Shown: positions 21,347 through 50,749 of the stretch, one piece after another | How positions within the stretch are numbered: the stretch's first letter is position 1 | Layout of the letters: every line of letters starts with the position of its first letter | DNA from: Squalus acanthias | Lineage: Eukaryota | DNA length: 64,000 bases | Direction: 5' to 3' | Assembly: GCA_030390025.1 (NCBI GenBank) | Contig: JASTWF010000070.1 | Span: 1,178,001 to 1,242,000 of the forward strand | Position numbers and translations under genes: made by a program | The notes under the pieces: model-generated | Seen by the model: only the letters and a program-made list of their open reading frames with translations | Databases searched by the model: none | Told to the model about the DNA's origin: nothing

Positions 21347-21401
21347 ATGTTCAAGGAAGCTGTTTCCCTGATCCTCATTGTCCACGTGTTCTGGCCTTAC
21401 G
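21347..21401 (+). CDS. Gene A leader exon
   Basis: MFKEAVSLILIVHVFWPY-G|GTGAGT, hydrophobic, phase 1. Confidence 0.75.
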
Positions 21402-22027
21402 GTGAGTGAGACACGGTTCCAAACTCCTAAATGGAATCAGCCAAAAACTGGAAACAATGGACTGTGTTTACTAAGTTGAAAATGTGACCGAGCTAACAGG
21501 TTTTGGCCTGATATTTTCGCCCCTCCCTATTTCTGTGACCTCCTCCAGCCCTGCAACCCTCCGAGATCTCTGCGCTCCTCCAATTCTGCCCTCTTGCGCA
21601 TCCCCATCGCTCCATCCTTGGTGGCGGTGCCATCAGCTGCCTGGGCCCTAAGCTCTGGAATTCCCTCCCCAACCCTCTCCGCCTCTCTCTCCTCCTTTAA
21701 GACGCTCCTTAGCACTTAGCTCTTTGACCAAGCTTTTGGTCACCTGTCCTAATATCTCTTTCTGTGGCTCGGTGTCAAATTTGTGTAAAGCGCCTGGGGT
21801 CGTTTAATTACGTTAAAGGCGCTGTATCAAAGAAAGTTGTTGTTGATAATGTTGTTTTACTTTCTGATCCTTCTATAAGGCGAAGTAAAGGCAAACTACA
21901 GAATGGATATAACAAGCAATAACTGAAGGCAATAATGATGCTGTTCTTAAATTACAGGCGAGGTGTTTCAACGCGGCTTCTTTCTATCGCTCAATAATCA
22001 GTTCTAATGTCACAATAATCCCTCTAG

Positions 22028-22359
22028 TTGCAGAATCCCAGCCCTTTCTGTCTCGGAGCCCCTTCACAGTGACAGCCGGAGTCGGCCAGTCGGTTAAATT
22101 GGAATGTCACCAGGTTCATGTATTGGATTTGTTGAACAGCTATTTCTGGTACAAGCAGCGTGTGGGTGAAGCCCCGAGACTAATCGATATCCCATCCTGC
22201 AATCGGACCGATTGCAAGTTTACTTCTAAAAGAGGACACACCAAATATATACTGATCCTGGACATCCGCCATTTACAGGTGGCTGACACCGGCTCCTATT
22301 ACTGTACTGCTAGGGGTGGCAATGCACCGCTACGAATGGATCCACACTGCTGTTTGGAG
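22028..22359 (+). pseudogene. Gene A single-exon V+J domain (frameshift near 22330)
   Basis: VAESQPFLSRSPFTVTAGVGQSVKLEC...WYKQRVGEAPRLI...DTGSYYCTARGGNAPL. The J-like strand NGSTLLFG|GTAAGA follows in a shifted frame. Confidence 0.85.
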
Positions 22360-22449
22360 GTAAGAGCGAAACCAAATTGAATTCAGATCATGCACAGCCA
22401 TATCATTCGGTGCAAACTAAGTATTAACTGTGTCCAAATCCCTGTCCAG

Positions 22450-22770
22450 ATATTTCCACACCCAAGACGGCTGTGCTGGTGTTTGCTCCGCCGGGGGAGC
22501 CGTATTTAAGGGACAACCTCCCCTTGGTGTGTTTGGTCACTGGCGTCTCCTCGAACCAGATTGCTATTTACTGGAACCTTACCGGACGGGTGATCGAGGG
22601 ACGGAGTGCTTCCGGTACACCTGACCCGGACGGTACCTACAGTATCAGAAGCCATGTGATGGTCTCGGGGGAAGCCTGGAGAAGCGGCGGGGTCTGCACC
22701 TGTGTTGTTGAGCTGGGTTGCAAGGACAAATCTTGGGCCAAGAGCGTGTCGCGCCCCAAAACAGTGGCAG
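22450..22770 (+). CDS. Gene A C1-set domain exon
   Basis: DISTPKTAVLVFAPP...LVCLVTG...IYWN...DGTYSIRSHVMV...WRSGGVCTCVV...KSVS. 321 nt, phase 1/1, after a 90-nt intron. Confidence 0.88.
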
Positions 22771-24808
22771 GTGAGTCGGTGATCTGTATAGCGAAGGTCA
22801 GAATTCAGCTTTAGCGTCAGTTGGAGTAGTTCACTCGCTCCGAAGCGCCTGAAGTCTGTAAATAAAGCAACACCACGGGATGAGCATGAATATCTATATA
22901 TCAGGAGAAATACTGCGATCAATCTGTTATAAAATACATTGAAATAAACTACGGTTACCCTCCGTCCCGGGTCCTGTAAATACTTTCACCGCTCTTGGCT
23001 GACTTTAGATTTCTGCGTGTCATTTTAGAATCATAGAATGATACAGCACAGGAGGAGGCCATTCGGCCTATCGTGCCTGTGCCGGCTCTTTGAAAGAGCT
23101 CTCCAATTAATCCCACTCCGCCCCTGCTCTTTCCCCATAGCCCTTGCAAAATTTTCCCCTTCAAGAATTTATCCGATTCCCTTTTGAAAGTTATTAGTGA
23201 ATCAGCTTCCATGCCCTTTCAGGCAGCGCATCCTGGAATGGATTGGAGTGAACGCGCTTTCTGACCTGAAACTGGTCAAGAGATGCGGTGAAATAGTTGG
23301 CTGAACGCGTCTGCTGGCATCAGACGCTCGCTCATTTCTACCCATTTATTTTCTCGTTTCCTATTTTAAAGACCCGAACCCCCCTTATCAATCCCCACAT
23401 TCCCCATGAAATATATTTTCTTTTAATCGGGTTATGAAGCTTCACTGAAATTGGGTATTCGTTCCAGTTTACCACTCATAAAAAATGGGGGTTGTATGAG
23501 CATAAATCTTTGAAGGTTGCAGAACAAGTCGAGAAGACTGTAAAAAACATATGGGATCCTTGGTTTTATTAATAGAGGAATAGAGTACAGAAGCAAGGAA
23601 GTTATGCTAAACCCTTATAAAACACTGGTTGGGCCACAGCTGGGGACAACACTTTAGGAAGTTTGTGAAATCTAAATTCTAACAGGACTAGACAGACCAG
23701 ATGCAGGAAGGATGTTCCCGATGGCGGGGGAGTCCAGAACCAGGGGTCACAGTCTAAGGGACAAGCCATTTAGGACTGAGATGAGGAGGAATTTCTTCAC
23801 CCAGAGAGTGGTGAACCTGTGGAATTGTCTACCACAGAAGGCACTTGAATCCAAATCATTAAATATATTCAAGAAGGAGTTAGATATATTTCTTAAGGCT
23901 GAAGAGATCAAGGGATATGAGGAGAAAGCAGGGACAGGATACTGAATTTGGATGATCAGCCATGATCTCATTAAATGACGGAGCAGGCTCGAGGGGCCGA
24001 ATGGCCGACTCCTGCTCCTATCTTCTTGGTTTCTAAGTCCTTGGAGAGTGTGCAGAGAAGATTTACCAGAATGGTACCAGGGATGAGGGACTTCAGTTGT
24101 GTGGATAGACTGGAGAAGCTGGGATTGTTCTCCATGAGCAGAGAAGGTGAAGAGGAAATTTAACAGCGGTTTCAATCATGAATCATGAAGGGTTCTGATA
24201 GAATAAATAATGAAAAACTATTCCCATTGGCAGAAGGGTCGCCAACCAGAGGACACAGATTTAAGGTGATTGTCAAAAGTACCAGAGGCGAGATGAGGAG
24301 ACATTTTTTTACGCAGCCAGTTGTTGTGATCTGGAATGTGGTGCCTGAAAGTGCGGTGGAAGCAGATTCAATAGCAACTTTCAAAAGGGAATTGGAAAAA
24401 TAATTGAAGGGATAACATTAACAGGGCAATGGGGAAAGAGAAGGGGAGTGGGACTAATTGGACAGCTCCACAAACGAACCGGCACAGCCACGATGGGTTG
24501 AATGGCCTCCTTCTGAGCTGTAAACATTCTATGATTCCGTTTTCAAATAGGATGTTTTGATTGTGCATTATTAAAATTATGGAGCAATACTGAGGGTGCC
24601 GTCTGTCAATTTGCCTCAGCCACCAAACTAGTGCAATTTATTCCATTATGAGCTTTCACTTGTCCAATATCCGTCGCATTGGCTGGTTTGTCCTTTCACA
24701 CCCCGGGTTTGATGGTCCTTCATTGTAACTGGTTCACGTTTCTCATCAGAGAATCCCAGAAAGTAATGAGTTGACCCAGCAGCATTTTCTAAGTGTTTCT
24801 CTCTGTAG

Positions 24809-24910
24809 GGTGGTGCATTCTGACCCTTCCCATTGCAATAAAGATTATGCTGATCCTGGTTCTGGTATTGATCTTCATTTCCATTTGGAATCATAAAAGC
24901 CGCAGATCAG
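24809..24910 (+). CDS. Gene A transmembrane exon
   Basis: ctctgtag|GWCILTLPIAIKIMLILVLVLIFISIWNHKSRRS|GTGAGA, 102 nt, phase 1/1. Confidence 0.8.
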
Positions 24911-25519
24911 GTGAGAATTTACATTTACCAGGAATATTTTAATAAATGTTTGTTTAATGCGATTCCCTTCACGGAGGTTTAAATACTAATTACAGTTAAT
25001 TGTTTCAGAAGAACGAGTCAAGAGACCCCACAAGGAAAGGTGAGTAACTGAACCATTTACAATGTTCATCAGTAACAGTCTCACTGTATTTAACACTGTG
25101 TCAAAACCAGTCAACACCTACTCCAATTTCAAAATTTTCCACGTTCTTTTGAGTTTGTTCAAAGTCCATTCCACAATTCTGTTCTTGATATTCATGGCAC
25201 GTGACGAAGGATTTAAAAGAAGTAATGCTTGTTTCATATTTTTGTTTGCATACAATTTTAGTTTAAGAGAGAGAAGGATAAGAGCCGGAAGAAATGAGCG
25301 ACACTCGGGTGAGTTGCATTGAAATGTTGGTGCCGATAGAATATCAATTGCAGGATATTTCAAAGATCAATAAGTTCATTTCCCGCCATCAAAATGACCT
25401 GCCATCGTGCTCCTGACTGCCGGACCTACAGAAAGATTAATTATTGGTTATTAATGCTGACAATTATGTATCAGATGGACAATAGACGCCAGACACCAGG
25501 GGTGGATCGCCCGTGTCTA

Positions 25520-25950
25520 TCCATTGGCTTATTGGTGAGCCATTTGCATAGTGGGGGACCATTGGCTTATTGCGGTACCCTTAGCTTATTTGGGGGTTCA
25601 TTGGCTTATTCAGATATCATTGGCATATTGGTGGACCATTGGCATAGTAGTGGACAGTTAGTGTATTGGGGTACCTTTGGCATATGGGGGTACCATTGGC
25701 ATATTGTTGGACCATTGGCATTTTGGAGCACCATTGGCTTATTGGTGAACCATTGGTGTAGTGGGGGACAGTTGGCATATTGAGGTGCCATTGCGTATTG
25801 GTGGGCCATTGGCATATTGGATGATCATTGGTTGATTGGGGTACCTTTGGCGTATTGGTGGACAATTGGCATCTTGGTGGAAAATTGGCATATTGTGGTA
25901 GCATTGGCCTATTGGTGGACCTTTGGCATATTAGGGGGCCATTGGCGCAT
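25520..25950. repeat. Degenerate ~20-bp minisatellite (CCATTGGCATATTGGTGG-like) in a gene A intron
   Basis: About 20 imperfect tandem units visible. Confidence 0.85.
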
Positions 25951-26822
25951 GCTGCCTCGATAATTAATTATAGATTAGCCAGAATTGAGAATGTTTAAAT
26001 TCATATTCTTAACTGTTGATACACAGGTGACACCCATCAAATGGAGGGGAAGCGGACACTTCAGGGTGCAATACATGTAAGTAAGTTCATTGAACCTGTT
26101 GCAATAATATACAGGAACTTGGTGATTTATGGTATGGGTGCAATGCGCCACATGCGGGATATTTCACACGGTTGGCATTGAGCAGGTCATAGCCCAGATC
26201 ATCTTAATTTGCAGCGAATCCCACTCGTTGCTCCAACTGAAAATAGAACATATCCCGCAGCCCTCTTCCCATCTGATAATAGAAAGGATAGGTTAATGTT
26301 CCGGGCACAATGCCTTCACCAGACTTTACTGCTGATTTTCAGCAGTTTCGGTTTCAATTTCAGAATTCCAGCTTTCTGCTATTTTCTATTATTTTTATCT
26401 CTACATTGAGTCCATGTCCACTCCCCTCACAATCCTCCCCACACCCCCGCCTCCCATCCGGCAGAGATACTGTTTTTAATATATTAGCTACAGTTATTAT
26501 TATGAAGATTCAGAAATAAGACGACACCCAGAATAGTTTCACAGATAAGTCAAAATATATTTCTATGGTAAGTCGTCGAAGAAGNNNNNNNNNNNNNNNN
26601 NNNNNNNNNNNNNNNNNNNNNNNNNNNNNNNNNNNNNNNNNNNNNNNNNNNNNNNNNNNNNNNNNNNNNNNNNNNNNNNNNNNNNNNNNNNNNNNNNNNN
26701 NNNNNNNNNNNNNNNNNNNNNNNNNNNNNNNNNNNNNNNNNNNNNNNNNNNNNNNNNNNNNNNNNNNNNNNNNNNNNNNNNNNNNNNNNNNNNNNNNNNN
26801 NNNNNNNNNNNNNNNNNNNNNN

Positions 26823-27755
26823 CGGGTGAGTGAGTGTGTGAGTGTGTGTCTGTGAGTGTGAGTGTGAGTGAGTTTGTGAGTGTGAGTGAGTGTGAGTGAG
26901 TGTGTGTACGTTTATGTGTGCGTGTGAGTGTAAGTGAATGTCTGAGAAGGTGAGTGAGAGGGTGAGTGTGTGATTATGTGCATGTGTGTGTTTGTGAGTG
27001 TGCATGTGTGGGATTGTCAGCCGTGGCTCAAGGGGTAGCACTCTCGCCTCTGAGTCAGAAGGTCATGGGTTCAAGTCGTACTCCCGAGACTTGAGCCCAT
27101 AATCCAGGCTGACACTCACAGTGCAGTACTGAGGGAGCGCTGCACTGTCGGAGGGGCGGTACTGAGGGAGCTCTGCACTGTCGGAGGTGCAGTACTGAGT
27201 GAGCGCCGCACTGTCGGAGGGGCAGTACTGAGGGACCGCCGCACTGTCGGAGGGGCCATCTTTCAGATGAGACGTTAAATCAACGCCACGTCTGCCCTCT
27301 CAGGTGGACTTAAAAGAACTCACGGCACTATCTCGAAGAAGAGCAAATGAGAGTTGTCCCTGGTGACCTGGGCCAATATTTGTCCCTCAACCAACAACAC
27401 AAAAAAATAGATTATCTGGGCATTATCACATGGCTGTTTGTGGAAGCTTGCTGTGCGCAGATTAGCAGCCGTGTTTCCTACATTACAACAGTAACTACAC
27501 TTCAAAATTACTTCATTGGCTGTAAAGCGCTTTGGGACGTCCTGAGGACGTGAAAGATACTGTAGAAATGCGAGTCTATCTTTTATGATGTGTGATTGAG
27601 TGTGTGTGTGATTCTGTCTGGGAGTGATTGATTGTAGGTGTGTGAGAGTGATTGAGTTTCTGTGTGTGTGATTCTGTCTTGGTGTGATTGATTGTATGTG
27701 TGTGAGTGTTTGAGTGTCTGTGTGTGTGTGATTATGTCTGAGTATGATTGATCAA
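26823..27755. repeat. (GT/GA)-rich microsatellite tracts flanking a SINE
   Basis: Direct inspection. Confidence 0.85.
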
Positions 27756-28253: not shown

Positions 28254-28340
28254 GGCGGCCCTCGAGACCAGACTCTTCACACCGTTCTGGAATTTGCTGC
28301 CTCGGAAAAGTCATCAAAAAAGAAGGCGGGTCGCGGATGA
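28254..28340 (+). CDS. Gene A terminal cytoplasmic exon (ITIM/ITSM-like TLHTVL, no Tyr)
   Basis: gtctcag|GGPRDQTLHTVLEFAASEKSSKKKAGRG*. A homolog is present in relic D. Confidence 0.55.
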   Translation, partial: GGPRDQTLHTVLEFAASEKSSKKKAGRG

Positions 28341-32826: not shown

Positions 32827-32871
32827 TCAGAGGGTCGGGACCGCATTAAACGCCAGGTGGGCGAAAAGAGT
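32827..32871 (-). CDS. Gene B terminal exon TLFAHLAFNAVPTL* (ITIM-like, Tyr>Phe)
   Basis: Acceptor tctcatag, phase 0. Homologous to gene C exon 40910-40957. Confidence 0.65.
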   Translation of the reverse strand, partial: TLFAHLAFNAVPTL

Positions 32872-33805
32872 CTATGAGAGAAAACAGAAACCATTATAAT
32901 GGCCCACATCATCATCATAGGAACAGAAGGACAGGAGGAGGCTGTTCAGCCCCTCGAGCCTGTTCGGCCATTCAATGAGATCCTGCCTGATCTGTATCTT
33001 AACTCCATCTACCCGCCTTGGTTGCCTAACACTTAACACCCTTACCCAACAAGAATCGATCAAAAATCTCTCAGTTTTGGAATTTCCAATTGACCCCCAG
33101 CCTCGACAGATTTTTGGGTAGAGAGTTCCAGATTTCCACTACCCTTTGTGCGAAGAAGTGCTTCCTGACATCACCCCTGAATGGCCTGGCTCTAATTTTA
33201 AGATGAATGCCCCCTTGTTCTGGACTCCCCCCAACAGAGGAAATAGTTTCTCTCTATCTACACCATCGAATCTTTAATCATCTTAAACACCACAATTAGA
33301 TCAACCCTTAATATTATGTAACCGAGGGAATACAAGCCCGAGTCTGGGCAACATGTCCACATAATTTAACCATTTTAGCCCCGGGTATCACTCTGGTGAA
33401 CCACCATTCTGCAATTTAAAATATCCAGATCTATATTTTTTTATCTACGTCCGCAGTTTTACATTAAAGGAAATCAATGCTATCCTGTAGTGCTCACTAT
33501 GCAAAGTTTTATAGACTCATTAACTATGAATCTTAAACATTAGGTTAAAATCAGTGCAAGGTATCGACGTATGTTGAGCAAAAACAATTCTTTTCAGATC
33601 TACCGCCTTGTCTTGTGCACGTGGTCTCGAATCGGTCAATTTCTGATCGCTGTTCGTGTTGCCTGATATAAAGAGAATCTTAAGCTCAGTCTAAATGCGC
33701 ACATTTCACACTGAACCGACCCACTAACATGTAATGAGTCAATGACACAATAAATGGATTGATTGGGAGCGCCGTGGTCTTGGAGCGTCTCCCGACAACC
33801 GCTAC

Positions 33806-33922
33806 CTGACCGCCGGTTCCTGCAGCTCCTTCCCGCGGCGACAATAACCATCAGCAGAAGCAGAAGCGCCGCCGCCGAAGTCCCGTAAAGCAGTAATCTG
33901 CAGTTGGTTTGTAGCGGTGACT
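33806..33922 (-). CDS. Gene B transmembrane exon
   Basis: ESPLQTNCRLLLYGTSAAALLLLLMVIVAAGRSCRNRRS, 117 nt, phase 1/1. Confidence 0.8.
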
Positions 33923-36304: not shown

Positions 36305-36607
36305 CTCTCTCAGATGAGACACTTTCACTGATCAGATCCCCAGTGGAGTCGATTGGAACGGCGCAAGTACAGACAGCGCCGCATCTCCAAATTACCGCCG
36401 AGACGCTCTTGTGACTCATGACAGTGTAGGTCCCGTCCGGGTCTATTGCCCCGGAATCGCTCCGTCCCTCGGTAACCTGTCCGGAAACATTCCAGCGAAT
36501 GGGAAGGGAATCGGGAGACAGGCTTTTCACCAAACACATCAATGGCACCCTTTCCAGCGAGGGAATTTCATCCGGCGGCGGAGCGAAGAGAAAGATTTCA
36601 GGAGACC
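36305..36607 (-). CDS. Gene B C1-set exon
   Basis: GSPEIFLFAPPPDEIPSLERVPLMCLVKSLSPDSLPIRWNVSG...DGTYTVMSH...WRCGAVCTCAV...SVSSER, open frame. Confidence 0.88.
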
Positions 36608-36699: not shown

Positions 36700-38151
36700 C
36701 TGCAATGAGCAATGTCGAGCCGATTCCGAATATCAAGGGCATTTCGCTAGATTTCTTAGCTGCGCAGTAATACACACCCGAATCATTTCTCTGGACATCT
36801 TTCACAATCAGAGAGTAAATACTGGATTCATAGAAACATAGAAACATAGGAAATAGGTGCAGGAGTAGACCATTCGGTCCTTCGAGCCTGCACCGCCATT
36901 CAATGCGTTCATGGCTGAACATGCTACCTCAGTACCCCATTCCTGCTTTCTCGCCATACCCCTTGATCGCCCTAGTTGTGAGTGTTATATCTAACTCCCT
37001 TTTGAATATATTTAGCGAACTGGCCTCAACAACCTTCTGTGGAAGAGAATTCCATAGATTCACCACTCTCTGGGTGAAGAAGTTCCTCCTCAGCTCAGTC
37101 TTAAATGGCTTCCCCTTAATCCTTAGACTGTGACCCCTGGTTCTAGTTTTCCCTAACATTGGGAATATTCTGCCCGCATCTAATTTGTCTAAACCAGTCA
37201 GGATTTTAAATGTCTCTATAAGATCCCCCCTCATTCTTCTGAACTCCAGAGGATACAAGTTCAGTTGACCCAATCCTTCTTGATATGTCAGTCCGGCCAT
37301 CCCAGGAAACAATCTAGTGAACCTTCGCTGCACTCCCTCAATAGCAAGAATGTCCTTCCTTAAGTTAGGAGACCAAAACTGCGCACAATACTCCAGGTGT
37401 GGCCTCACCAAGGCCCTGTACAACTGCAGCATCACCTCCCTACTCCTGTACTCAAATCCCCTTACTATGAAGGCCATCATTCCGTTTGCTTTCTTGACTG
37501 CCTGCTGCACTTGCATTCACACCTTCATTGACTGATGTACCATGACGCCCAGGTCTCGTTGCACCTCCCCTTTCCCTAATCTGCCACCACTCAGGTAATA
37601 GTCCGCCTCTCTATTTTTACCACCAAAGTGGATAACCTCACATTTATCCACATTGTACTTCATCTGCCATACATTTGCCCATTCACCCAACCTGTCCAAG
37701 TCACTCTGTAGCCTCCTAGCATCCTCCTCATTGTTCACACTGCCTCCCAATTTAGTGTCATCCGCAAATTTGGAGATATTACATTTAATCCCTTCGTCCA
37801 AATCATTAATATATAATGTAAACAGCTGGGGTCCCAGCACCGAACCCTGCGGTACCCCGCTGGTCACTGCCTGCCATTCTGTAAAGTACCCATTTACTCC
37901 TACTCTTTGTTTCCTGTGTGCCAACCAGTTCTCAATCCATTCGTCGTTAACTTGTCCGGCAAATCTTCCTTCAGGAAGCATGTACTTCCACACGGTGTAA
38001 ACCAGCTGTAGATGCTCTCGGTGCTGCCGCTTATACCAGTGCACAGCTTCTACTGCTAACCAACCCGTGTGACAATCCACCTTAAAGATACTTCCAACGG
38101 AGACAGTCTGAACCGGAGGATTCTGGCGGAGAACTTCCTGACAGACAATAA
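36700..38151 (-). pseudogene. Gene B V+J exon split by CR1
   Basis: VIVCQEVLRQNPPVQTVSVGSIFKVDC...VHWYKRQHREHLQLVY...EGRFAGQVNDE [CR1] SSIYSLIVKDVQRNDSGVYYCAAKKSSEMPLIFGIGSTLLIA|GTAAGA. Confidence 0.88.
36830..37938 (-). mobile_element. Young 5'-truncated CR1 LINE (1.1 kb) with a 4-bp TSD (GAAT)
   Basis: RT C-terminal half, 3' UTR and (CTATGTTT)n tail. ATTC at 36826-36829 and 37939-37942. Very similar to the CR1 at 58397-61098. Confidence 0.9.
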
Positions 38152-40909
38152 CTGAGGGAAGAACGTATTCACAAGAGGGTCTGTTACACGGCAGAAATAA
38201 ACACCGCTTCCTAAAAAGAAACGGGTACAGCAGTAAACTGTGAATAGAACCATCCGATCATTAATGATCATGGATCCTAATATCTAAACGAGTCAAATGA
38301 CGGGGGTTAAAATTGAACCAATAACAGGAGAAAGAATGAAAGGAAGCAGGGAAGGAAGAAAGAAAGAAAGACAAAAAGAAAGATGCTTTACAGCCAATGA
38401 AGTATTGTTTGAAGTGTAGTCACAGTTGGAATGTAGGAAACGCAGCAGCCAAATTGCGCACAGCAAGCTCCCACAAACAGCAATATGATAATGACCAGAC
38501 CATCTGTGATGTTGATTGAGGGATATAATATTGGCCCCAGGACACCGGGCAGATCTCCCCAGCTCTCCGTCCAATAGTGGCCGTGGGATCTTTTACCTCC
38601 ACCTGAGAGGGCAGACGGGGCAGACGATAGATGGAAAATATTGACATTTGGTCTAATTTCATTCGCCTGAGATAATCCAGTCCTACAACATGACACGAAT
38701 ATTAGAGAATACAGCGCGAAATCTTCTACAAGGCTGACTAGCTCAATGATATAGCGCCGGAATTCCGCCATGTATTAGAAGCACATAAGACTGTCCTGGA
38801 AAGAGATGGAACAGCGCGCAGGGAGTTAAGAAGCTCATTGTCTGCGACCGAGGCGCTTGATGTGAGCTGCACGCTGAACACTTTGCTGGGATATCTTTGC
38901 GCTGGGCCCGGCTCACAAGAGATGTGAAAGGCACAGCTCCGGAAATTGCGTGCTTGCGTTTTAAAAATAGCGGGCCTGGAAAATACAGCGCAATGTCAAG
39001 GCTCGCTGCGGGTTTCCTGTTGACACATTGAACGCCCACGCACAGGTCTGCCTGCAAAGGGCAATGCATTCCAGCTCGTGTTAAACAGGCGTGAAAGGCG
39101 GCGAGCAGTGCAGGCTGATAAACTGTGAACTGAAGGCAGGCAGTGCTGAATTACAATCATCGGACTGGTTGTGTCATTCGTGTGGGCGCGAGGACATGAT
39201 CCTATTTCGAATGTTGCTTTTTATTGGTCCAGAACCCATTCATTCATACACCCTTACTTGTATCAACAAAAATAGACCAGATTGAAGAAAGGTGCAATCA
39301 TCTGCTTTTTTACCAGCCGCGGCTCAGTGGGCAGCACTCTCGCCTCCGGGTCAGAAGGTCGTGGGTTCAGAGTCCCACTCCAGAGACTTGAGCACAATAT
39401 TTATACCTCAGTCAACTTCAATAAAAGAGATGTCCTGATCATTATCACATTGCTATTTGTGGGAGCTTGCTGTGCAAAAAATGGCCGGCGTATTCACTGC
39501 ATTACAACAGTGACGACATTTCAAAAGTACCTCATTGGCTAAAAAGCGCTTTGGGACCTCCTGAGGTGGTGAAAGGCGCTATAGAAATGCAAGTTCTTCT
39601 TTACCTCTTTCCCCAGGTTTTGCTCTGGCGTGTTATTAACCAAACGTCGCCGCCGGGTGAGCATCATTTATGGGCACTGAGTGCGATTTTGGCCGCGCTC
39701 CTGTTCTTATTTACACGCTCAGCCTCCTGGTTCCTGGATTCTGCGCCCCTCTCATCGCCGCTGCACCATCAGGCGCAATTCACATCTCGATTGCATTCAA
39801 TGTCCCATGAAAGAATTAAAAAAAAGATGGATTTAAGAAACGTCCCGATCTGCACATTCCCGAGGTTACCTGGATAATTCCGGAAATTAAGAAATGTGGA
39901 TTGTAGACTGCTTTTTTGGGGTGGAAAGTTCCAGAGTTCCACCACCATTTGTGTTAAGAAGTGCTTCCTGACATCACCCCTGAACGGCCTGGCTCTAAAT
40001 TTAATTTGTTACCCCCTTGTTCTGGACTCCCCCCCACCAGAGAAAATATTTGCTCTCTCCCCACCCTATCAACTCCTTGAAGCATCTGAAACTCATCAAT
40101 TAAATCAACCCTTAATCTTCGATATTGAAGTAGATTCAAGTCTGGTCTATGTAAACTGTCCTCACAATTTAAACTTTTTAGATCCTGTATAATTATCTGG
40201 TTAATTCTCATATGAGCTGAAGTTGGAGGCCTGGTCGCATTGTACAATGGAAATTGCTCCACCTCTGAGTTGCAAGTATATTTCCCTTCTGTAACTAAAC
40301 GGAACTATCTGTGCGTTGGATAACATTTACCAAAATATATTTTACAACATTTCCATTGCTACAACAAGTAAAGGAAGACGTGCATTTATATAGCACCGCA
40401 CAGGACCTCGGGGCTCCCGAAGCGCTTTACAACCAATGAAGTACTTTTGAAGTGTAGTCACTGTTGCAATGTAGGGAGACGCGGCCGCCAATTTACGCAC
40501 AGCAAGATCCCACAAACAAACACTTCAGCAAAAAGTGCTTCATTGGCAGTAAAGCGCTTTGGGACGTCCTGATGTCGTGAAAGGCGCTGCAGAAATGCAA
40601 TTCTCTCTTCTAACAGTTAAGCAGAACATGAATCTTTCGATAATTGTCCCTTTAGCAACTGTTATTATCTTTTTTTTTAATCCGGTTCTCTGCTGTGGTG
40701 TCTCCCGATATGATAAAGAACACATTCTAAATCTGCATGAGATTATAAAGAAAAGATAATTGCTTTATTAAAACGGTAATAAAGTTGTTTAAAAATCATT
40801 AAGCATATCTGCAGACAGAGTACAATCACACTGGGAGCTAATGGATAATTACCGCCCAGTAATTTGAATAGTCACTGAACACAGGCTGTTATTGATGATG
40901 CGGTGATTC

Positions 40910-40957
40910 TCATGACGATGTGTAATCCGCACCAAACGCCAGGCGCGCTTACAGAAT
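40910..40957 (-). pseudogene. Gene C terminal exon, ITIM I-L-[Y>stop]-A-R-L
   Basis: ctcacag|ATT CTG TAA GCG CGC CTG GCG TTT..., which aligns to gene B ACT CTT TTC GCC CAC CTG GCG TTT. Confidence 0.65.
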
Positions 40958-42711
40958 CTGTGAGGGAGCAATATGAGAATACAATTCACAGAATCATAGA
41001 ATCATAGAATGGTTACAGCACGGAAGAAGGCCATTCAGCCAGGCGAACCCGTGCCGACTCTCAGCTGGTCCCACTCCCCCGCCCTTTCACCGTAGCCCTG
41101 CAATTCTTTTTTCTTCAGATACTTATCCAACTCCCCTTTGAAAGATAAGATTGAGTCTGCCTCCACCACCCTCTCAGGCAGCGCATTCCAGCTCCGAACC
41201 ACTCGCTGCGTAAAAAAGTTTATTCTTACGTCGCCTTTGGTTCTTTTGCCAATCACCTTAAATCTGTGTCCTCTGATTCTCGACCCTTCCGCCAATGGGA
41301 TCAGTTTCTCTCTATCTACTCTGTCTGTACCCCTCATGATTTTGAGCACCTCTATCAAATCTCCTCTCAACCTTCTCTGCTCCAAGGAGAACAACCCCAG
41401 CTTCTCTAGTCTATCCACATAACTGAAGTCCTTCATTCCTGGAACCATTAATTTCCACACTTTTGTACTCTATACCTCTATTTATGAAGCCCAGGAGCCT
41501 TTTTAACTGCTTTCTCAACACGCCCTGCCACCTTCAACGATTTGTGCACATTTACCCCAAGGTTTCTCTGTTCCTGCACCCACTTTAGGATTGTACCCTT
41601 AGTTTATATGTCCTCTCCTCATTCTTTCTACAAAAATCTTTCATTTCGCACTTTTCTGCGTTAAATTTAATCTGCCACGTGTCCGCCCATTCCACCAGCC
41701 TGTTTATGTCCTCTTGAAGTCTATCACTCTCCTCCTCACTGTTCACTATACTTCCAAGTTTTGTATAATTTGCAAATTTTGAAATTGTGCCTTGTACACC
41801 CACTTCCAAGTCATTAATATATGTCTTCACCCTCCTGCTCAACTTTATTCTGAGTCAGTATAAGTTTTAATCAAAATGGGAACAACAGGTCTCCCGCCTG
41901 AGTGTCTTTAGATTAATTTAAGAACAGGAAACACGAATTTAAGAAAAGTTTATGCAGTTCCCCTTTTGAATATAATTTCAATTTTACTGATTACAGTGTA
42001 AGAATTAATTCAGAAAGATCAGTAATGGGCACCACCCTCCCTATCTCTCTAACCTCCTCCAGCCCTACAACTATCCGAGATCTCCGCGCTCCTCCAGTTC
42101 TGGCCTCTTGCGCATCGACCGATTTTAATCACTCCACTATTGGCGGCCTAGCCTTTAGCTGCCTGGGCCCTAAGCTCTAAAATTCCCTCTCGGCCTCTCT
42201 CTCCTCCTTTAAGACGCTCCTTAAAACCGACGTCTTAGACCAAGCTTTTAGTAACCAGTCCTAAAAACTCCTTATGTGGCTCGCTGTCATATATTCTCTA
42301 ATTAACGCTCCTGTGAATCGCCTTGGGACATTAAAGGCGCTGTATAGATACAAGGGGGTAGAAATTAGGTCGCGCCCCATTTGGGGCGCAAATATCGTCC
42401 GCGCGCAAATATTAGCGCCTGGCGCTAATTATCGGCACTGACAGGAAACTTCACTTTTACCGCCCCGGGAGGTGAGTGGAGCGCTAAATTAGGCGCTGCA
42501 CACCTCTCTTAAGGCGCAAAGGCCGAGCAGTGAGGCGCTACCTCAGCGCACGAGCGCAGCGCAGCTGCTGCCAGTTAGCGAGGGAACACAGACACACTGG
42601 CGCCGGACACTTCTTAAAGCGGGGGGGGCCACTTGCTCCCCAGCCACACCCTGCTCATTGCAGCCTTGAATCTCAGCCTGGAGAGACCTGTAATCCATTT
42701 TGCTGCCAAGC

Positions 42712-44678
42712 ATGGAGAGGGTGAGAGAACGCGCTCATCGCTTCACCGAGCGGGCCTTGGATGCTCTGGTTGACGCAGTGGAGCGCAGACGATGCATGCT
42801 GTTCCCGGAGAGTGGCAGGAGGCCTTTGCCACGCGAGTTCAGAAGAGTGTGGAGGGAGGTGGCTCAGAGCGTCTCCTCCAGGAGCATGGTGCCCAGGACC
42901 CATGTCCAGTGCCGCAAAAAGTTCAACGACCTCACTCGGGTCGTCAGGGTGAGTGGCTTTTTCTCAATACCTCTCCATCCCTCCATCTCAACCTCACTCT
43001 ATGGCCAGAGGGTCTTAAAACCCCAATGCACAACACTCATGCAACACCTATGGCCCTTTCATCAAACACACACACACATTCCACACTTTGCATACAGTAA
43101 GGGCTATTCACCTATGAGAGGCACATCAGGCAAGACCATGGCTGCATACAGTAAGGGCTATTCACCTATGGGAGGCACATCAGGCAAGACCATGGCTGCA
43201 TATTGTAAGGGCTATTCACCTATGGGAGGCACATCAGGCAAGACCATGGCTGTATATTGACTCAGATGCTGTCCCTTTTCTTGCAGGCTAAGCTGGCTCA
43301 TAATCGGAGACAGCAGCAACGGACGGGTGGAGGGCGGCTTCAGCTGCAACCCCTCAGCGATCTGGAGGAGCGCGTCCACAGGATTGTGGCAAGCCGGGTG
43401 ATCGGTCCCGTCACCACTGGAGACGCCGACCCCGTTGTGGACAGCAATGGTAAGGTCATCACCTTTTTGTCCTCTGTCCTTCCACTTGTCCCTCACAATA
43501 CCAGCCTTTGACACTTTCAATCCAACTTGCTAACTCGCTGCACTTATTCCTCCCTTACTGCCACCCTGTACTCACGCTAAAGCCACTCTTGTAACTCCCT
43601 GCTTTCAGATGGTGATTCACCAGCTGAGGAGATGGTCCCTGAAGCTGCCACTGGGAGTGATGCTGCAGCTGAGGAGGAAGAGGAAGCCGGAGCATCAGTG
43701 CCACCCTCTCCCGAGGAAGCCCATGGCCACACTGGGAACACGCCTTCCCCGGAGGGGAGCAGGGGGGAAGGGGCTGATGATGGTGAAGTTCCAGGACCCA
43801 GCGGGCTGCAGCAACGCCATTGGGGGGGGGAGGGAAGAACGGGGGAGCAGGGGGGAAGGGGCTGATGATGGTGAAGTTCCAGGACCCAGCGGGCTGCAGC
43901 AACGCCATGGGGGGGGGGGAGGGAAGAACGGGAGCCTTCTCCCCAGAGGGAGAGTATGCCAGACACTCCTAATGCAATGGACGCAGAGGAGGAGCGGCTG
44001 ATTGCAGAAATGAACAGCCAGGCGGTGGGCATGCACACTGAGCTCATGGGTGCAGTGGGAAGGGTGCCCGAATGCATTGAGGCACTGGCAAGGAGTGTGG
44101 AGCACTTCGCTGTAGCACAGGCGGATGCCACACTAAAGCTTACTGCTGCAATTCAGTCACTGGCTGCCAGGAACCCATCTGAGCCTGCTCTCATGCAGAC
44201 TCAGATTGAGGCCACGCGAGCACTGACTGCTGCCATCCTCGATGGTTCGTGCACATGTCCCCGGGGCTGTCACCGCGCCGCAGCAGGCCAGCAATCTGTT
44301 CTCCGGCAAATTGCTCCGGATGCTGAAGTGCTGCCCCGTGGGAGTGCCAGTGTGTCGGGCGAGCAGGGAGTTGCTGTCCTCTCTCACGATGACAGCATTC
44401 CTGCTGCCAACACTGTCACTTCTCCACTGCACTTGCCACCGCCTGTAGGACAGACTGCTGCCGCCCATGCAGAGTTGGTGCAGTCTGCAGCCGGGCCCTC
44501 CAGGCCCAGAAGTGGTCGAGGCCGTCCTTCAGGGGCATCTGCAGTGTCAGGGTCTGACAAGCAGCAGCCTTCCACCAGCCTTGCTGCAGCCACTGAGGTC
44601 CCATTACGGAGGAGCAGTAGGGTTAGAAGGGGGGAAGTGCGCAAGGGAAGGAGATCACCCTCGAAGGGCAAAAAGTAG
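42712..44678 (+). CDS. Harbinger Myb/SANT-like DNA-binding protein (3 exons: 42712-42948, 43287-43449, 43609-44678)
   Basis: RFTERALDALVDAV...WREVAQSVS...RTHVQCRKKFNDL|AKLAHNRRQQQRTGGG with GT-AG introns. Exon 3 has a local frame break inside a ~90-bp G-run duplication (43755-43935). Confidence 0.75.
43090..43257 (+). repeat. 3 x 54-bp tandem repeat in intron 1 of the Harbinger Myb gene
   Basis: GCATACAGTAAGGGCTATTCACCTATG...GGCAAGACCATGGCT, three near-identical copies. Confidence 0.9.
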
Positions 44679-44972
44679 GAGGTGTGCCAAAATGCTGGTC
44701 ATTTTTTTATTAAAGGCCGAGGTTCATGGCCCAACTTTTGTTTAGTGTTTTGGACATTATCTCCAGGTTGTGAGAACCAGTTATGTTATTGACTGTTTTT
44801 TTGTGTTTATTTCTATGAGTTTGTCATGAGGAATTGACACACACAGAGTTTGTACAATAAATAAGTTTCTGTATTCAAAATATACATGGCTGGTGGTTGG
44901 AATTATTGGTGCCTTGGCCGGCTTAGGGGTTGCGTGCTGGGTTGATTCGTGTTTGTAGCACTGGCAGGGGCC

Positions 44973-46133
44973 CTAGAAGCGGCTTGCTATTAGTCGTTGA
45001 CGGACGGCCCTTGCAGTTTGACCATTGTGGGCCGCCCTCCTGCCTTGGTGCTGCTGCTGATCATCGTCCTCGGCCTGTTCCTCCTCTTCCTCCTCCTCCT
45101 CTTGTGGTGCTGCAAGGCCTGGTGGCATTGGCTGCGTCCTGAGGATTGCCATGTTGTGCAACATGCAGCACACCACTACGAATTTGGAAACTTGCTCAGG
45201 CGAGTACTGCAGGGCTCCTCCGGAATGGTCCAGACAGCGGAATCGTTGTTTGAGCACGCCGATTGTGCGCTCAATAATGTTCCTCGTTGCTTGTTGGCTT
45301 TCCTGGTACCGCAGCTCAGCAGGGGTGTTTGGCGCACGGAGCGGTGTCATCAGCCAGGTGCTCAATGCGTACCCCTTGTCCCCCAGAAGCCAACCAACTG
45401 GCTGATGCGGTGCCTCGAAAATTTCTGCCACAGTACTCTGGCGCAGGATGAAAGCATCGTGGCAGCTGCCCGGAGAGTGGGCATTGACAGCGAGAATCAC
45501 CTGTCTGTGGTCACAGACCAACTGCACATTCAAGGAATGGAACCCCATTCTGTTCCGGAACTCCTCTGCATTCTCTCGCGGAGCACGCAAAGCCACATGC
45601 GTGCAGTCAATGGCGCCCTGCACCATGGGGAAGCCCGCTACCCTCGCAAAGCCCATAGCACGGTCATGCTGCTTGTCTGGGGTCATAGGGAAGGAGATGA
45701 AGTCTCGTCTCCTTGTGAAGAGGGCATTGGTGACCTGCCGGATGCAGCGATGCACCGCAAACTGGGAGATATTGGCGAGGTCCCCAACAGCAGCTTGGAA
45801 TGAGCCAGTGGCGTAGAAGTTCAAAGCCACTGTGACCTTCACTGCCACCGACAGAGACGTCCTGGACCTCAGCTGAGGCTGCAGATCTGGCTGCAGCAGG
45901 TGGCAGAGCTCAGTGACCACCTCCTTGCTGAATCGCAGCCTTCGCAAACACAGCTCCTCGGACATGTGGATGTAGGAGAGCTGTTCACGATATACCCTGG
46001 GAGGGTAAGCTCTCCTGTACATGCGCCTGATGGCCCTCCTCCGTCTGGCCATCATTGCCACTCTCTGTCTGCGTCTCACTCTCCTCCGATTGAGCTGGAG
46101 CAGGACGACGCCCCCAATCATTGCAGCCCCCAT
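44973..46133 (-). CDS. Harbinger (HARBI1-like) DDE transposase, 386 aa, intact
   Basis: ALNFYATGSFQ, GAIDCTHV, GSCHDAFIL, LLGDKGY, TRNIIERTIGVLKQRFRCL and CCMLHN motifs. Confidence 0.93.
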   Translation of the reverse strand: MGAAMIGGVVLLQLNRRRVRRRQRVAMMARRRRAIRRMYRRAYPPRVYREQLSYIHMSEELCLRRLRFSKEVVTELCHLLQPDLQPQLRSRTSLSVAVKVTVALNFYATGSFQAAVGDLANISQFAVHRCIRQVTNALFTRRRDFISFPMTPDKQHDRAMGFARVAGFPMVQGAIDCTHVALRAPRENAEEFRNRMGFHSLNVQLVCDHRQVILAVNAHSPGSCHDAFILRQSTVAEIFEAPHQPVGWLLGDKGYALSTWLMTPLRAPNTPAELRYQESQQATRNIIERTIGVLKQRFRCLDHSGGALQYSPEQVSKFVVVCCMLHNMAILRTQPMPPGLAAPQEEEEEEEEQAEDDDQQQHQGRRAAHNGQTARAVRQRLIASRF

Positions 46134-47093
46134 ATTCTCTTTGCCAGAAAAGTAATGAGGTACAGCAACGAAAGTAGCAGCAAAGTTAGGATGAACTAGG
46201 CAAAACTACCTCACAAAGCGTTGAGTCAATGTAGAAGTCTCTCTCTCTCTCTCTCCGAATCTCTCTCTCTCTCTCAGAACGAGTGGTGCATAAATGTCGA
46301 CCACAGAAAAAGACAGGAAGAGGCCCCCTTTAAATAGCGCCCCCCCCAGCCCCACACCGATTGATAACGTTCCAGTCTTCCGGTCGTTGGAAGCGCCAGG
46401 CGGTAAGGCAGTGGGCGCCACTCAATTTCCGCTCCGGGGCGCCCCAAGGGCGTTGCACCACGGAATGACGTCACAATCTGCGCGCGCAGGTGGTCGCAGC
46501 GGTAAGTTTTAGCGCCGCCGCACAATCTCAAGTTAAGTTCTCGAGCGGCGCAAACAGCGCTGCGCCCGGGCGTTAGCGCCTTAACGCCCCATTAGCGCCC
46601 ATTTAAGGCGCTAACGGGAGGCGCAACCAACTGAATTTTTACCCCAAGTTGTTCTAAGCAATTCATTGCATGCGAATCGCTTTGGGTCGTTTCCGAGAGA
46701 GGCACAACACGCTGTATTAATGCGAATCTCTCCTTAAAGTAACCACCAACGGACATGTCCATGAATATCAATGAAACGCCTGATACCAGTATAGAATCTT
46801 ACAGCACAGAAGGGGGGCATTCGGCCCGTCCTGCCTGTGCCGGCTCGGTGAAAGCGCTACCCAATTAGTCCCACTCCTCCTGCTCTCTAATGAAAATAAC
46901 ATCTCTGAGATTCTTCACACCTACCTCGTTTTCTGGGTTCTTGATTCTTTAATCTGGACCTTGGTCAGTTGTGACTAGACTCTCTGATTTAAGGAGATGA
47001 TTAGAGATAAATATGCAAACTTACACACCAAAAGGACCCTTTCAGAAAAACGACAAAAGACTCAACTTATGTTTAGCTTCGGACAGGCAGTAC

Positions 47094-47210
47094 CTGGTTT
47101 GCGGGTCTTGCAGCGCCGTCTCGCCGCGACAATGACCATCCCCAGCACAAGAAGGGCCGCCGCCATACGGGCGTAAAACGCGATGCGGCAGGTCGTGCTC
47201 CGGAGGGACA
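47094..47210 (-). CDS. Gene C transmembrane exon (Arg in TM)
   Basis: VSLRSTTCRIAFYARMAAALLVLGMVIVAARRRCKTRKP, 117 nt, phase 1/1, colinear with the gene B TM exon. Confidence 0.8.
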
Positions 47211-49111
47211 CTGAACAACAAAGAATTAACTCTAATGAAATGAATGAAACACAAACTAATAACTTACCTTCAGTGACATTCTGAAACCTCGCCTACTGGG
47301 ATTTGAAGACGTTTTTGCCAGAATCGTTAAACACAAGATGATGTCCTGTTCCCTATATCACTGCAAGTCGTTCCTGTTGTTGAGATCTCTGCGCTCCTCC
47401 AATTCTGGCCTCTTGCACATCCCCCGATTTCCATTTTCCCTCCATTGGCGGCCGTGCCTTCAGCTGCCTGGGCCCCGAGCTCTGGATATTCCCTCCCTAA
47501 ACCTCTCCGCCTCTCTCTCCTCCTTCAAGACGCTTCTTAAAAACTCCCTCTTTGTCCCAGCTTTTGGTCACCTGTCCTAATATCTCCTTATGTGGCTCGG
47601 TGATAAATTGTGTCTGATAATCGCTCCTGTGAAGCGCCTTGGGACGTTTTACTACGTTAAATGCGCTGTATAAATGCAGGTTCTTGTTGTTGAATTATGT
47701 ATAGGCTTAAAGGTTGTTAAGTGCTCACTCGCATATTTATCCATTTTTAAAATGTGCACTTACTTTAGTGCTAGACTTTATGTAGAATTTAGACAGAGAC
47801 ATGGAGGGGGCACAAAAGGGATGCAGCAAGTTGATATTAGGGGTGAAAGACCTTAATTAGGAAGAGACGCGGTTGGGGATACTGTTAGAACAGAGAAGGT
47901 TAAGAGGAAATCTAATAGAGGTGTTCAGTTTTACCAGGGATTTGGTAAAGTGGATAAGGAAAGACATTTTCACTGGTCCGTGAGTCGGCAAGAGCATAAA
48001 TGTAAGATCATTACAAAAAGGAATGAAGATGTTAGCAGTCGTTAATGCAGTCGGTTGGTGGGTCAGAGAAGGTGATATTAGGAATAGTCGTGGGAGCAAT
48101 TTTGAAGAAGGATGTCATTTAATCTTTGAAAAAGAAAAAAAAAGTATGAAGAATGGGTAGGGCAATGGGACGAAGAGGAACCACCTTCAGAGAGAGGGTA
48201 CAGGGCGATGGGTGAAAGGGAAAAATAAGCTAAGCGATTGAGATTAAGGGGCGAACTCTTCCAGACAGCAATCACAGGCACGATGCGTCGAATGACCCTC
48301 CTCCTGTACTGGAAAAGTCTGAATCTGGATAGGGGCATGTCGTCAAAACCTAAGGTAGGATATACTTGCCAGAGAGGAAGAGCAACGAAGGTTCACCAGA
48401 CTGGTTCCTTGGATTGTCCTATGAGGAGAGATTGAGTGGACTAGGCCTATATTCTCTCGAGTTTAGATGAATGAGAGGTGATTTCATTGAACCATACAAA
48501 ATTCTTACAGGATAGAAGCAGGGAGGATGTTTCCCCTGGCTGGGGAGTCTAGAACCAGGGGTCACAGTCTCAGAATAAGGAGTCGGCCATTTATGACTGA
48601 GATGAGGAGAAATTTCTTCACTCAGAGGGTGATGAAGCGTTGGAATTTTCTGCACCAGAGGGCTGTGGAGGCTCAGTCGTTGAGTATATTCAAGACAGAG
48701 ATCGATAGATTTTTGGATATTAAGGGAATCAATGGACATGGGGATAGTGCAGGAAAGTGGAGATGAGGTAGAAGATCAGCCATGATCTTATTAAATGGCG
48801 GAGCAGGCTCGAATGACCAAATGCCTTACTCCTGCTCCTATTTCTTATGTTCTTATGAAGCAGGTGAGATGTGCAGCGACTGATGGCGAGATAGTCAGGC
48901 AAGAAACATGGAGAAATAAATGCAGCAAATGGCCAGCAAAGGAAAAGAGATGTTAAAGTTTCCGTTAGAGCGCTCTAGTCTGGAGTTGCTTGCAACATTG
49001 GCAAATTTGTAAAATGTTACTGAAGAGGGACAAAGTGTAGTTTAGGATATAAAGCAACAGTTCTGATGCAGCAGTTTAACACTATCATTAACTCGTCTCA
49101 ACTCCAGTTAC

Positions 49112-49411
49112 CTCTCTCAGACGAGACACTTTTACTGATCAGATCCCCAGCCGAGTTGATTGGAATGGCGCAGTACAGACTGCGCCGCTGCTCCAAGTTT
49201 CCGCCGAGACGCTGATGTGGCTTCTCGTAGCTCCCGTCCGGGTCCACCGTCCCGGAATCGCTGCGTCCCTCGGTAACCCGGCCCGAAACATTACAGCGGA
49301 CGGGAAGGGAATCGGGAGACGCGCCTCTCACCAAACACATCAAGGGCACCCGTTCCGACCAGGAAATTTCATTTGGCGGTGGAGTTAAGAGAAATATATC
49401 CGGAGGACCCG
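49112..49411 (-). pseudogene. Gene C C1 exon with compensating 5-nt and 1-nt deletions
   Basis: Aligns to gene B C1. The segment between DGSY and CAIP reads in a shifted frame, and the core Trp is changed to Cys. Confidence 0.8.
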
Positions 49412-49513
49412 CTAAATTCGGAAAATAAAACGAAGGCCGAATTAACAGTTAAACAAGACGCGTTTTAATTGATGTATAAATGCAAAATTGAGTGAAATAG
49501 TTGTGAAGATTAC

Positions 49514-49849
49514 CTGTAATCACTAGCTTGGAGCCATTTCAGAATATTAAGGACTTAGTGTGGTTTGGCGAGGCACAGTAAAACAGCCCAGAATCATTTC
49601 TCTGGACATTTGCAATGACCAGAGTATAATTACCAGATTTATTACATATCTCGGCGGAAAATCTTCCCGCTGGCCTTACGAATTGGCCCACTTTGTAAAC
49701 GAGCTTTAATTCCCCTCGGTGCCATTGTCTGTACCAGGACACAACGAGACGCGCCATCCTCCCCGTCTGGCATTGCAGTTTAACAAGGCTCCCGACAGCA
49801 AGCGTCTGAACCGGCGGAGACTGGGACAAAACCAACTGAGACACAACAA
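49514..49849 (-). pseudogene. Gene C V+J exon
   Basis: VVVSQLVLSQSPPVQTLAVGSLVKLQC...WYRQWHRGELKLVY...DSGLFYCASPNHTKSLIF*NGSKLVIT|GTAATC, 336 nt. Confidence 0.88.
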
Positions 49850-50749
49850 CTGAGAAGGAGACAAAAAATATTAACAACAGGTTATGGGCCCGAAGCCAAC
49901 CTCCGGCGGGCCTACCTTGATACCGACTAATCAAAAAAATCCATCTTCAGGCGCTTGTCGGCTTCAAAGTTGCGCTGTTGTTATTGGTTGAAATTTCCAC
50001 TTTGCTGAATATCTTAGTTGCTTTTTTAAAGTTAAAGTTGAATGTGAAATTACACATTGAATCTTACAGCACAGAAGGAGGCCATGCGGCCCATCGTGCT
50101 AGTGCCGGCTCTTTGAAAGTGTTCTCCAATTAGTCCCATTCCCCCCTGCTCTTTCCCCATAGCCCTGCAACTTCTTTTTTCCTTTTCAAGTATTTATCCA
50201 ATTCCCTTTTGAAAGTTACTATTGAATCTGCTTCCACCGCCCTTTCAGGCAGCGCATTACAGATCACAACAACTCACTGTGTAATCCACTTCTCATTATT
50301 GATTCTGTCAAAACACTTCTCCTCATTGACTCTATCCAAAACTTTCCCCGCTCTCTTAAAACATCGAAGGATATCTCACCTTGGAAGAGATGGCACAGCG
50401 TGCAGAGGCCGAAGAAGCTCATTGCCGGTGACCCAATCGGTTAAACTCTGGGCCACGGACCGGCAGCTCGCTGAGAAATGGCTCTCGGTAGATCGGTGCG
50501 AGGGAGGTGTGAAATGCAGAGCGAATTGCGGAAATCATGCGCTGTGTTTATTAATAAATGTACGATTGGACTGGAAAGCGGTGCCGAGGCAGAAAGCTTT
50601 CTGCGGGTTTCCTGTTTATACATGTCAAGTGCTCACACACAGACACACAAACGCAGACAGCATCTGTTTTGCAAAAAGCCCCTCGTTTCAACTCATATTA
50701 GTTAGACCACATTTGCAGCACTGTGCATAGTTCTGCTCTCCGTATTGTA

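Follow-up and report, generated by a model that had tools for sequence, protein, structure and literature searches.

The window analysed here is a stretch of 64,000 nucleotides from Squalus acanthias, forming part of contig JASTWF010000070.1 (C3553 in the present analysis) in a 3.7-Gb genome. Three genes, termed A, B and C, are located within it between two immunoglobulin (Ig) light-chain genes, each of the three consisting of a leader, a joined variable (VJ) exon, a C1 exon, a stalk Cys with a transmembrane (TM) segment, and a tail. Gene A extends on the forward strand from 21347 to approximately 28340, and genes B (38838 to 32827) and C (50422 to 40907) are located on the reverse strand, with exons as displayed in Table 1. 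Their closest named relatives are exclusively from sharks and rays. An earlier note proposed that the A and B types pair as a germline-encoded two-chain receptor similar to the T-cell receptor (TCR). Our analysis supports this proposal in part: it is rather likely that A and B/C chains form a disulphide-linked, TCR-shaped heterodimer, probably an inhibitory receptor, of which the window contains broken copies.

The V exons match Pfam V-set and the C exons C1-set above the cut-off, except that in gene C the C1 exon, which is frameshifted, and in gene B the 5' half of the divided V exon fall below it. No 12/23 recombination signal sequence (RSS) was found around the V exons of A, B or C, and each VJ is a single exon. 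The motifs highlighted previously can all be located: WYKQRVGEAPRL lies at 22147 (+) in gene A, WYRQWHRGELKL at 49736 (-) in gene C, and WYKRQHREHLQL of gene B within the open reading frame 37517-38257 (-). A Cys directly precedes the TM segment in all three genes, as GWCIL at 24808 (A), TNCRL at 33908 (B) and TTCRI at 47196 (C). Moreover, the F-strand YYC/FYC is retained in all chain types, as is the G-strand motif, in the form FGxG in B and C and LxNG, lacking the first Gly, in most A orthologs.

All three window copies are broken, each lacking either the tyrosine of the immunoreceptor tyrosine-based inhibitory motif (ITIM) or a frame leading to it. In gene A, a 1-base deletion ahead of the G strand, either genuine or an assembly error, shortens the VJ exon to 332 nt from the 333 of the other 19 of 20 loci and shifts the frame. 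Its ITIM Tyr is also lost, as in a paralog 98% identical to gene A. Gene B is damaged at the leader donor (GA), by a 1.1-kb long interspersed nuclear element (LINE) within the V exon, and by replacement of the ITIM Tyr with Phe. The LINE fragment occupies approximately 36830-37938 with a 4-base direct repeat on both sides, and the same insertion is present in a gene B paralog at C3553:1332284. The damage to gene C comprises the TGA inside FGNG, the 5-base and 1-base deletions in C1, and two stops in the tail. Its last intron also contains a Harbinger-type DNA transposon (42694-46205), which carries an open frame of 410 aa for a DDE_Tnp_4 transposase as well as a Myb/SANT frame.

Table 1. Exons of genes A, B and C and of a neighbouring light-chain gene, in window positions. 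W+9 and similar labels denote positions counted from the C-strand Trp.
Feature	Position	Strand	Remarks
Gene A leader exon	21347..21401	+	ATG to GT donor, 55 nt; equal length in 20/20 mapped A loci
Gene A single VJ exon	22028..22359	+	Pro at W+9; extra C'-D Cys pair; Pfam V-set
Gene A C1 exon	22450..22770	+	Pfam C1-set E 1e-9; AG/GT sites
Gene A stalk-Cys and TM exon	24809..24910	+	Lys in TM of window copy
Gene A tail exons	25009-25039, 25262-25308, 26027-26076	+	AG/GT mapping; tblastn with horn-shark tail
Gene A last exon	28254..28340 (start approximate)	+	ITIM-like LYASL of paralogs is LHTVL here
Gene B leader exon	38796..38838	-	Donor GA, not GT
Gene B VJ exon	36700..38151	-	Leu at W+9, FGxG; LINE-split
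Gene B C1 exon	36305..36607	-	Pfam C1-set E 3.7e-8
Gene B stalk-Cys and uncharged TM exon	33806..33922	-	
Gene B tail exons	33604-33662, 32827-32871	-	LYAHL of paralogs is LFAHL here
Gene C leader exon	50380..50422	-	
Gene C VJ exon	49514..49849	-	B subtype, Leu at W+9; TGA within FGNG
Gene C C1 exon, 5-base and 1-base deletions	49112..49411	-	Pairwise alignment with open copy L092
Gene C stalk-Cys and TM exon	47094..47210	-	Arg near helix outer end
Gene C tail exons	46925-46983, 40907-40957	-	First: TAA stop common to 4 copies; second: ITIM exon, Tyr codon changed to stop
Germline-joined Ig light-chain gene	5262..9285 (ends approximate)	-	Pfam V-set and C1-set; C exon ~5265-5600, VJ exon ~8692-9048

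Searches of the same genome, scoring the best 150 candidates per search, recovered V exons of at least 21 A, 17 B, 6 C and 48 light-chain genes on contig C3553, together with a single A and C pair on contig C24. It can be observed that the next element downstream of A is an opposite-strand B or C V exon in 18 of the 20 A genes scorable on C3553, and B TM and tail remnants occupy that place in the remaining two. A and B/C thus form tail-to-tail 1:1 cassettes. In a set of 22 A genes, the frame is open as far as the end of the TM segment in 14 and of the ITIM exon in 11; 9 of the 17 B genes on C3553 are open, and among 7 C genes the ectodomain and TM segment are open in 2. Of 21 cassettes scored by hand, 9 had an intact A with an intact partner, 8 had damage in both genes, and in 4 the two genes disagreed (Fisher p 0.009). 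The status of A did not follow that of the light-chain V exon lying head to head with it (p 0.58 in 20 cassettes; V exon only).

Several further features of the array were recorded. Its orientation flips at C3553:366773-389504 (G000), and the flanking cassettes there include near-identical pairs (99.6% across 5 kb). The C24 cassette shares 99.3% identity with that at C3553:148111; some copies may therefore be haplotype duplicates. A decayed C1 exon of the A/B family lies at C3553:479000-488999 (L130), flanked by a B remnant and a light-chain gene. On C24, an open 1290-aa polyprotein frame of a long terminal repeat retroelement (L100:1651-5520) is located about 30 kb from the cassette. Next to the C24 copy lie JTB, a LINGO-type gene and an HlyIII/PAQR exon, the PAQR match lying below its cut-off; in human, such genes neighbour CD1 at 1q21-22. 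Linkage to the major histocompatibility complex (MHC) on the array contigs was rejected, since none of 49 MHC class I matches falls on C24, C3553 or C185.

Regarding the residues expected at a V-V interface, the earlier note had assigned Pro to A, as in light-chain variable (VL) and V-alpha domains, and Leu to B and C, as in heavy-chain variable (VH) and V-beta domains. Pro at W+9 in A and Leu in both B and C were confirmed, with Pro in 3/3 light-chain and Leu in 4/4 Ig heavy-chain outgroup rows. Within this genome Pro occurs in 15/15 distinct open A copies and Leu in 14/14 open B copies, so the pattern is not due to chance. Across orthologs, Pro is found in 15 of 22 A rows, and the 25 B rows contain 0 Pro, 19 Leu and 3 Met, counts which represent two related clades rather than independent trials. 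It should be noted that Pro at W+9 is not diagnostic, since an unrelated fish V-array outgroup row also carries it. Six V interface positions checked are fixed in 15/15 A copies of this genome, Tyr occupies W+1 in both A and B chains, and in most A rows an additional Cys pair lies between C' and D. A stalk Cys occurs in 16/22 A rows and 23/25 B rows, those lacking it being gene models with no TM segment there, and thus in every gene model reaching the membrane. In the A loops, replacement exceeds silent change (pN 0.133 versus exon pS 0.039; 15 copies of this genome). Identity between A and B amounts to 47% in C1 and 29% in V. The C1 F strand of A, B and C also reads CxC, a second invariant Cys lying two residues ahead of the canonical one in 22/22 elasmobranch rows.

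The A:B complex was modelled by ESMFold2, without alignments, from intact horn-shark chains (P0007 20-242 and P0031 17-240). The model scored 0.64 compared with 0.08 for the best control, runs shared at least 81% of contacts, and partner pLDDT (predicted local distance difference test) was at least 76. In calibration, the mark was reached by 51/78 solved versus 2/108 mismatched microbial pairs, and by 39/65 versus 2/126 eukaryotic pairs. The predicted interface combines the face used in antibody variable fragments (Fv) with C1-C1 contact, involving Y60, Q62, P68, Y110, L120 and C239 of A and Y54, M62, L64, Y105, F118 and C237 of B. The intact A:B pair thus reaches the mark, possibly through likeness to solved complexes, with a predicted Fv-type interface that includes the Pro/Leu positions; the model gives no ranking against A:A or B:B. 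Single-chain AlphaFold2 predictions gave pLDDT 34.9 for A (14 sequences), which was set aside, and 67.3 for B, the fold matches of which are exclusively Ig chains. ESM Atlas matches were generic Ig clusters, with nothing more specific.

Among elasmobranchs, homolog searches yielded 17 proteins of each of the A and B types, named automatically as Ig chains or left uncharacterised, and a profile search extended the range to sturgeons, paddlefish, lungfish, a caecilian, Xenopus, turtles, alligator, a lizard and a chimaera. When V and C1 were placed in trees of their own, each after removal of 18 rows, the deep forks were not settled, and a joined V+C1 tree was used instead, with 41 chosen rows comprising 35 non-rearranging and 6 Ig/TCR outgroup rows, a thin outgroup sampling. 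In this tree, the non-rearranging rows separate from the Ig/TCR rows (100/98), A+B form one clade (96/97), and A forms one clade from chimaera to alligator (97/96). A and B are thus nearer to one another than either is to the VL, VH or TCR beta rows, and the A/B split predates that between sharks and bony fish. The database name "Ig chains" was rejected, as A/B rows stand apart from the Ig/TCR rows. B and C were likewise not upheld as separate chain types; C falls within the B clade and is a subtype of B. In 11 species, from sharks to turtles, A and B proteins are found on records of equal length, a proxy for linkage rather than a gene map. A third non-rearranging V-C1-TM group (P0090, P0116, P0136, P0142 and P0169; coelacanth, lungfish, sturgeon and gar) adjoins A+B in the tree.

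The broader claim that A is VL/V-alpha-like and B VH/V-beta-like holds for Pro and Leu at W+9 but not overall. For either V domain, the top-ranking PDB entries are light chains or V-alpha, by sequence as well as by fold, so "VH-like" is true of single positions only. Orthology of B to VH/V-beta was rejected on these matches and on the V+C1 tree, in which A and B are sisters.

A YxxL motif closes the tail of both chains (LYASL in A, LYAHL in B), and no conserved TM charge was found in 22 A and 25 B rows. Inhibition is therefore the likely output, unlike that of the TCR, and the TCR-like reading fails as to signalling: both chains carry ITIM-like tails and lack a conserved charge for CD3 docking. 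A different combination was found in the C subtype. Four C copies (L092, L094, L123 and L093), one of which is otherwise intact, share a TM Arg and a TAA stop ahead of the ITIM exon; the C copy on C24 has neither, retains the ITIM, and has the same V exon translation as L092. Receptors that come in activating and inhibitory pairs usually differ in this way, one form having a TM Arg with a short tail and the other an ITIM tail. TM Lys was also observed in 4/20 mapped A copies (window 24809-24910; L066, L073 and L074). Three of these four lack the ITIM, through two Tyr changes and one tail frameshift, and all three are otherwise damaged or without an intact partner.

Expression was examined in four small-share runs of one study, none registered as RNA, so that the RNA nature of the run used is a guess. 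In this putative RNA run, contigs of the C type connect the leader with V, and V with C1, across a GT-AG intron; V is likewise connected with C1 in contigs of the B type, and an A-type V contig is also present. No A splice joint was listed when reads were aligned to the whole A gene, a result swamped by repeats and uninformative for uncovered parts.

In the proposed mechanism, the V domains would pair through their GFCC' faces, with Tyr, Gln, Pro, Tyr and Leu of A predicted to face Tyr, Leu/Met, Tyr and Phe of B. The C1 domain of A is predicted to pair with that of B, bringing the two stalk cysteines together. The joined loops may then bind a varying ligand, and both tails may recruit SHP-type phosphatases. 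The C subtype, with its TM Arg and a tail cut before the ITIM, could make the receptor activating by way of an FcR-gamma or zeta-type adaptor. Alongside A:B, homodimers may arise. The claim of a germline-encoded two-chain receptor gains from germline VJ exons without RSS, strict cassette pairing, conservation of the Pro/Leu residues and stalk Cys, the A:B model and a tendency of A and its partner to decay together. As a mechanism, the heterodimer is the best supported, and we hold it to be fairly probable, with homodimers as its main rival.

A number of observations weigh against the heterodimer. Regarding residues, Pro is replaced in 7/22 A rows, 5 of them with Leu; W+3 is Arg, not the canonical Gln, in 11/14 B copies of this genome; and B loops show no replacement excess (pN 0.096, pS 0.115). 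A and B differ very little in their C1 contact faces, so homodimers may well form. Regarding the model, the score of 0.64 belongs to A:B alone and cannot rank it over A:A or B:B, the calibration covers neither antibodies nor close relatives of a partner, and a pass represents likeness rather than binding, since Fab (antigen-binding fragment) and TCR dimers have been solved many times over. Both stalk cysteines are in the contact lists, but the Cys-Cys pair is absent from the 25 best-placed pairs listed. In the tree, B monophyly is weak (55/50). The 1:1 pairing was seen in this one genome, and horn shark searches gave 9 A versus 2 B clusters. Co-decay is suggestive only, because p becomes 0.057 once 3 near-duplicate cassettes are removed and the cassettes are related by duplication; it could also be explained by a shared control element. 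Finally, the reads are bulk data at depth 2-5 from one study, which cannot show one cell, and UrIg2, a non-rearranging shark VJ-C1 protein, is described in PMC12227049 as a homodimer with non-Fv V pairing.

In the main rival explanation, each chain mostly forms its own disulphide-linked homodimer, like CD8 alpha-alpha or UrIg2, with the gene pair kept by shared regulation and any heterodimer incidental. Near-symmetric C1 faces, the same stalk Cys in A and B, an ITIM-like motif on each chain, and the UrIg2 precedent (PMC12227049) are consistent with it. Against this stand the type-specific residues within the predicted V-V interface (W+9, W+11 and the G strand), the 1:1 cassettes, and co-decay with the partner rather than with the light-chain gene; on balance we consider it rather unlikely. 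Chicken PRARP chains, discussed below, reportedly form homodimers too, which also speaks for it.

Less probable again, and in our estimation improbable, is that A and B are monomeric or located on different cells, each an inhibitory receptor in its own right or the two forming a linked receptor-ligand pair in trans. Differences in upstream sequence are in its favour. The Ig-type octamer ATTTGCAT is located at 21117-21124, 230 bases ahead of the gene A start. It is perfect before 8/16 A copies and 1-2 bases off in the others (background 11 in 200 kb), and no perfect octamer precedes any of 20 B/C copies, two C loci having less than 120 bases upstream. When one A and one B copy were compared upstream, they had no more than a short local match in common, and linked receptor-ligand pairs are common in immune gene clusters. 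However, the invariant unpaired stalk Cys and the conserved hydrophobic GFCC' and C1 faces fit side-by-side dimers, and both transcript types occur in one sample.

That B/C instead pairs, as a heavy-chain surrogate, with the light chain of the same repeat is highly improbable. In its favour, light-chain genes are interleaved in nearly every repeat, and B has the VH-like Leu at W+9 and the light chain Pro with a C-terminal Cys. Against it, partner status does not follow light-chain V status (p 1.0), light-chain V exons outnumber those of B/C (at least 48 versus at least 23), B C1 resembles A C1 (47%), and Ig/TCR rows fall outside the A+B clade.

The light-chain gene of Table 1 lies head to head with gene A as a component of the repeated unit, and most light-chain V exons on C3553 match across the whole VJ exon. 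Germline-joined light-chain genes, with an octamer upstream, are found in the window at 5262-9400 and 62235-62594; their isotype may be sigma-2, as a guess.

To return to the A/B heterodimer, its relation to known systems may be considered. The A/B family is probably the cartilaginous-fish branch of PRARP, amplified and diversified, and is treated here as a candidate member. PRARP/VJC1 is reportedly found in a V-C1 form in fish, amphibians and reptiles, including the Xenopus and reptile VJC1, and is said to be linked to the CD1 region. Chicken PRARP1 and PRARP2 reportedly occur as monomers and as disulphide-linked homo- and heterodimers. The A/B family shares with PRARP/VJC1 a pair of non-rearranging VJ genes, the V-C1 organisation, the TM segment and a tail with ITIM- or ITSM-like (switch motif) sequences, and its range (sturgeons, paddlefish, lungfish, caecilian, Xenopus, turtles, alligator and lizard) agrees with this distribution. 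In contrast to PRARP/VJC1, the shark pair is amplified about 20-fold, with light-chain genes interspersed, a full C1, A-loop diversification and a TM-Arg short-tail subtype. No PRARP-labelled or bird sequence was present among the relatives listed (120 of 233 in one listing; the best 150 in another). PMC10751288 names PRARP among VJ genes and places it in the MHC. Should the A/B family prove to be PRARP, a heterodimer has reportedly been described in chicken already, which limits the surprise.

Compared with TCR alpha/beta and gamma/delta, the A/B chains share the leader-VJ-C1-stalk Cys-TM layout, the W+1 Tyr in both chains and the predicted Fv-type V-V and C1-C1 pairing. Unlike the TCR, they have neither RSS nor a V/J split and no conserved TM Arg/Lys for CD3, their tails are long and ITIM-like, and A and B are sisters rather than alpha and beta orthologs. 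A TCR-like TM charge with a short tail is found in the C subtype alone (TM Arg). The A/B system is neither TCR nor Ig, and would work like a TCR ectodomain on an inhibitory tail. CD8 forms homo- and heterodimers via stalk cysteines and has neither a C1 domain nor an ITIM. Teleost NITRs form inhibitory and activating multigene sets, also lacking a C1 domain, and to our knowledge are not two-chain receptors. Germline V domains with J-like strands are shared by A/B, CD8 alpha/beta and NITR (for NITR, see also PMC7916673).

UrIg and UrIg2, according to PMC12227049, resemble A/B in being elasmobranch non-rearranging VJ-C1 genes in MHC-paralogous or antigen-receptor regions that encode disulphide-linked dimers. 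They are described there as having 3-11 C1 domains, forming homodimers with V-V pairing via the A and G strands, and being reported in elasmobranchs only. A/B differs in having one C1 exon per gene, two chain types and a range to tetrapods. The abstract, introduction, results and discussion of PMC12227049 contain no passage on the A/B family. Furthermore, a literature search found no description of the shark A/B array or its pairing; subscription papers were mostly outside this search, so it is no proof of absence from print.

The heterodimer bears on the still debated origin of the two-chain antigen receptor before V(D)J recombination. UrIg and UrIg2, at present the strongest candidates for a precursor, form homodimers and lack Fv-type V pairing (PMC12227049). 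A germline V-C1 pair with a predicted Fv interface, extending from chimaeras to crocodilians, would make heterodimer asymmetry without rearrangement testable, and many intact shark A/B copies are present for cloning. In a bolder version, which we regard as doubtful, A/B would be a surviving pre-RAG obligate Fv-type heterodimer that has kept its Pro/Leu asymmetry since the jawed-vertebrate ancestor independently of Ig/TCR. It would have been amplified with light-chain genes to about 20 cis-matched germline pairs with diversified loops, C being an activating TM-Arg version that docks a zeta/FcR-gamma adaptor like TCR alpha. If the heterodimer is true, a paired receptor system of the natural killer type, mislabelled as Ig chains in databases, would be added in sharks.

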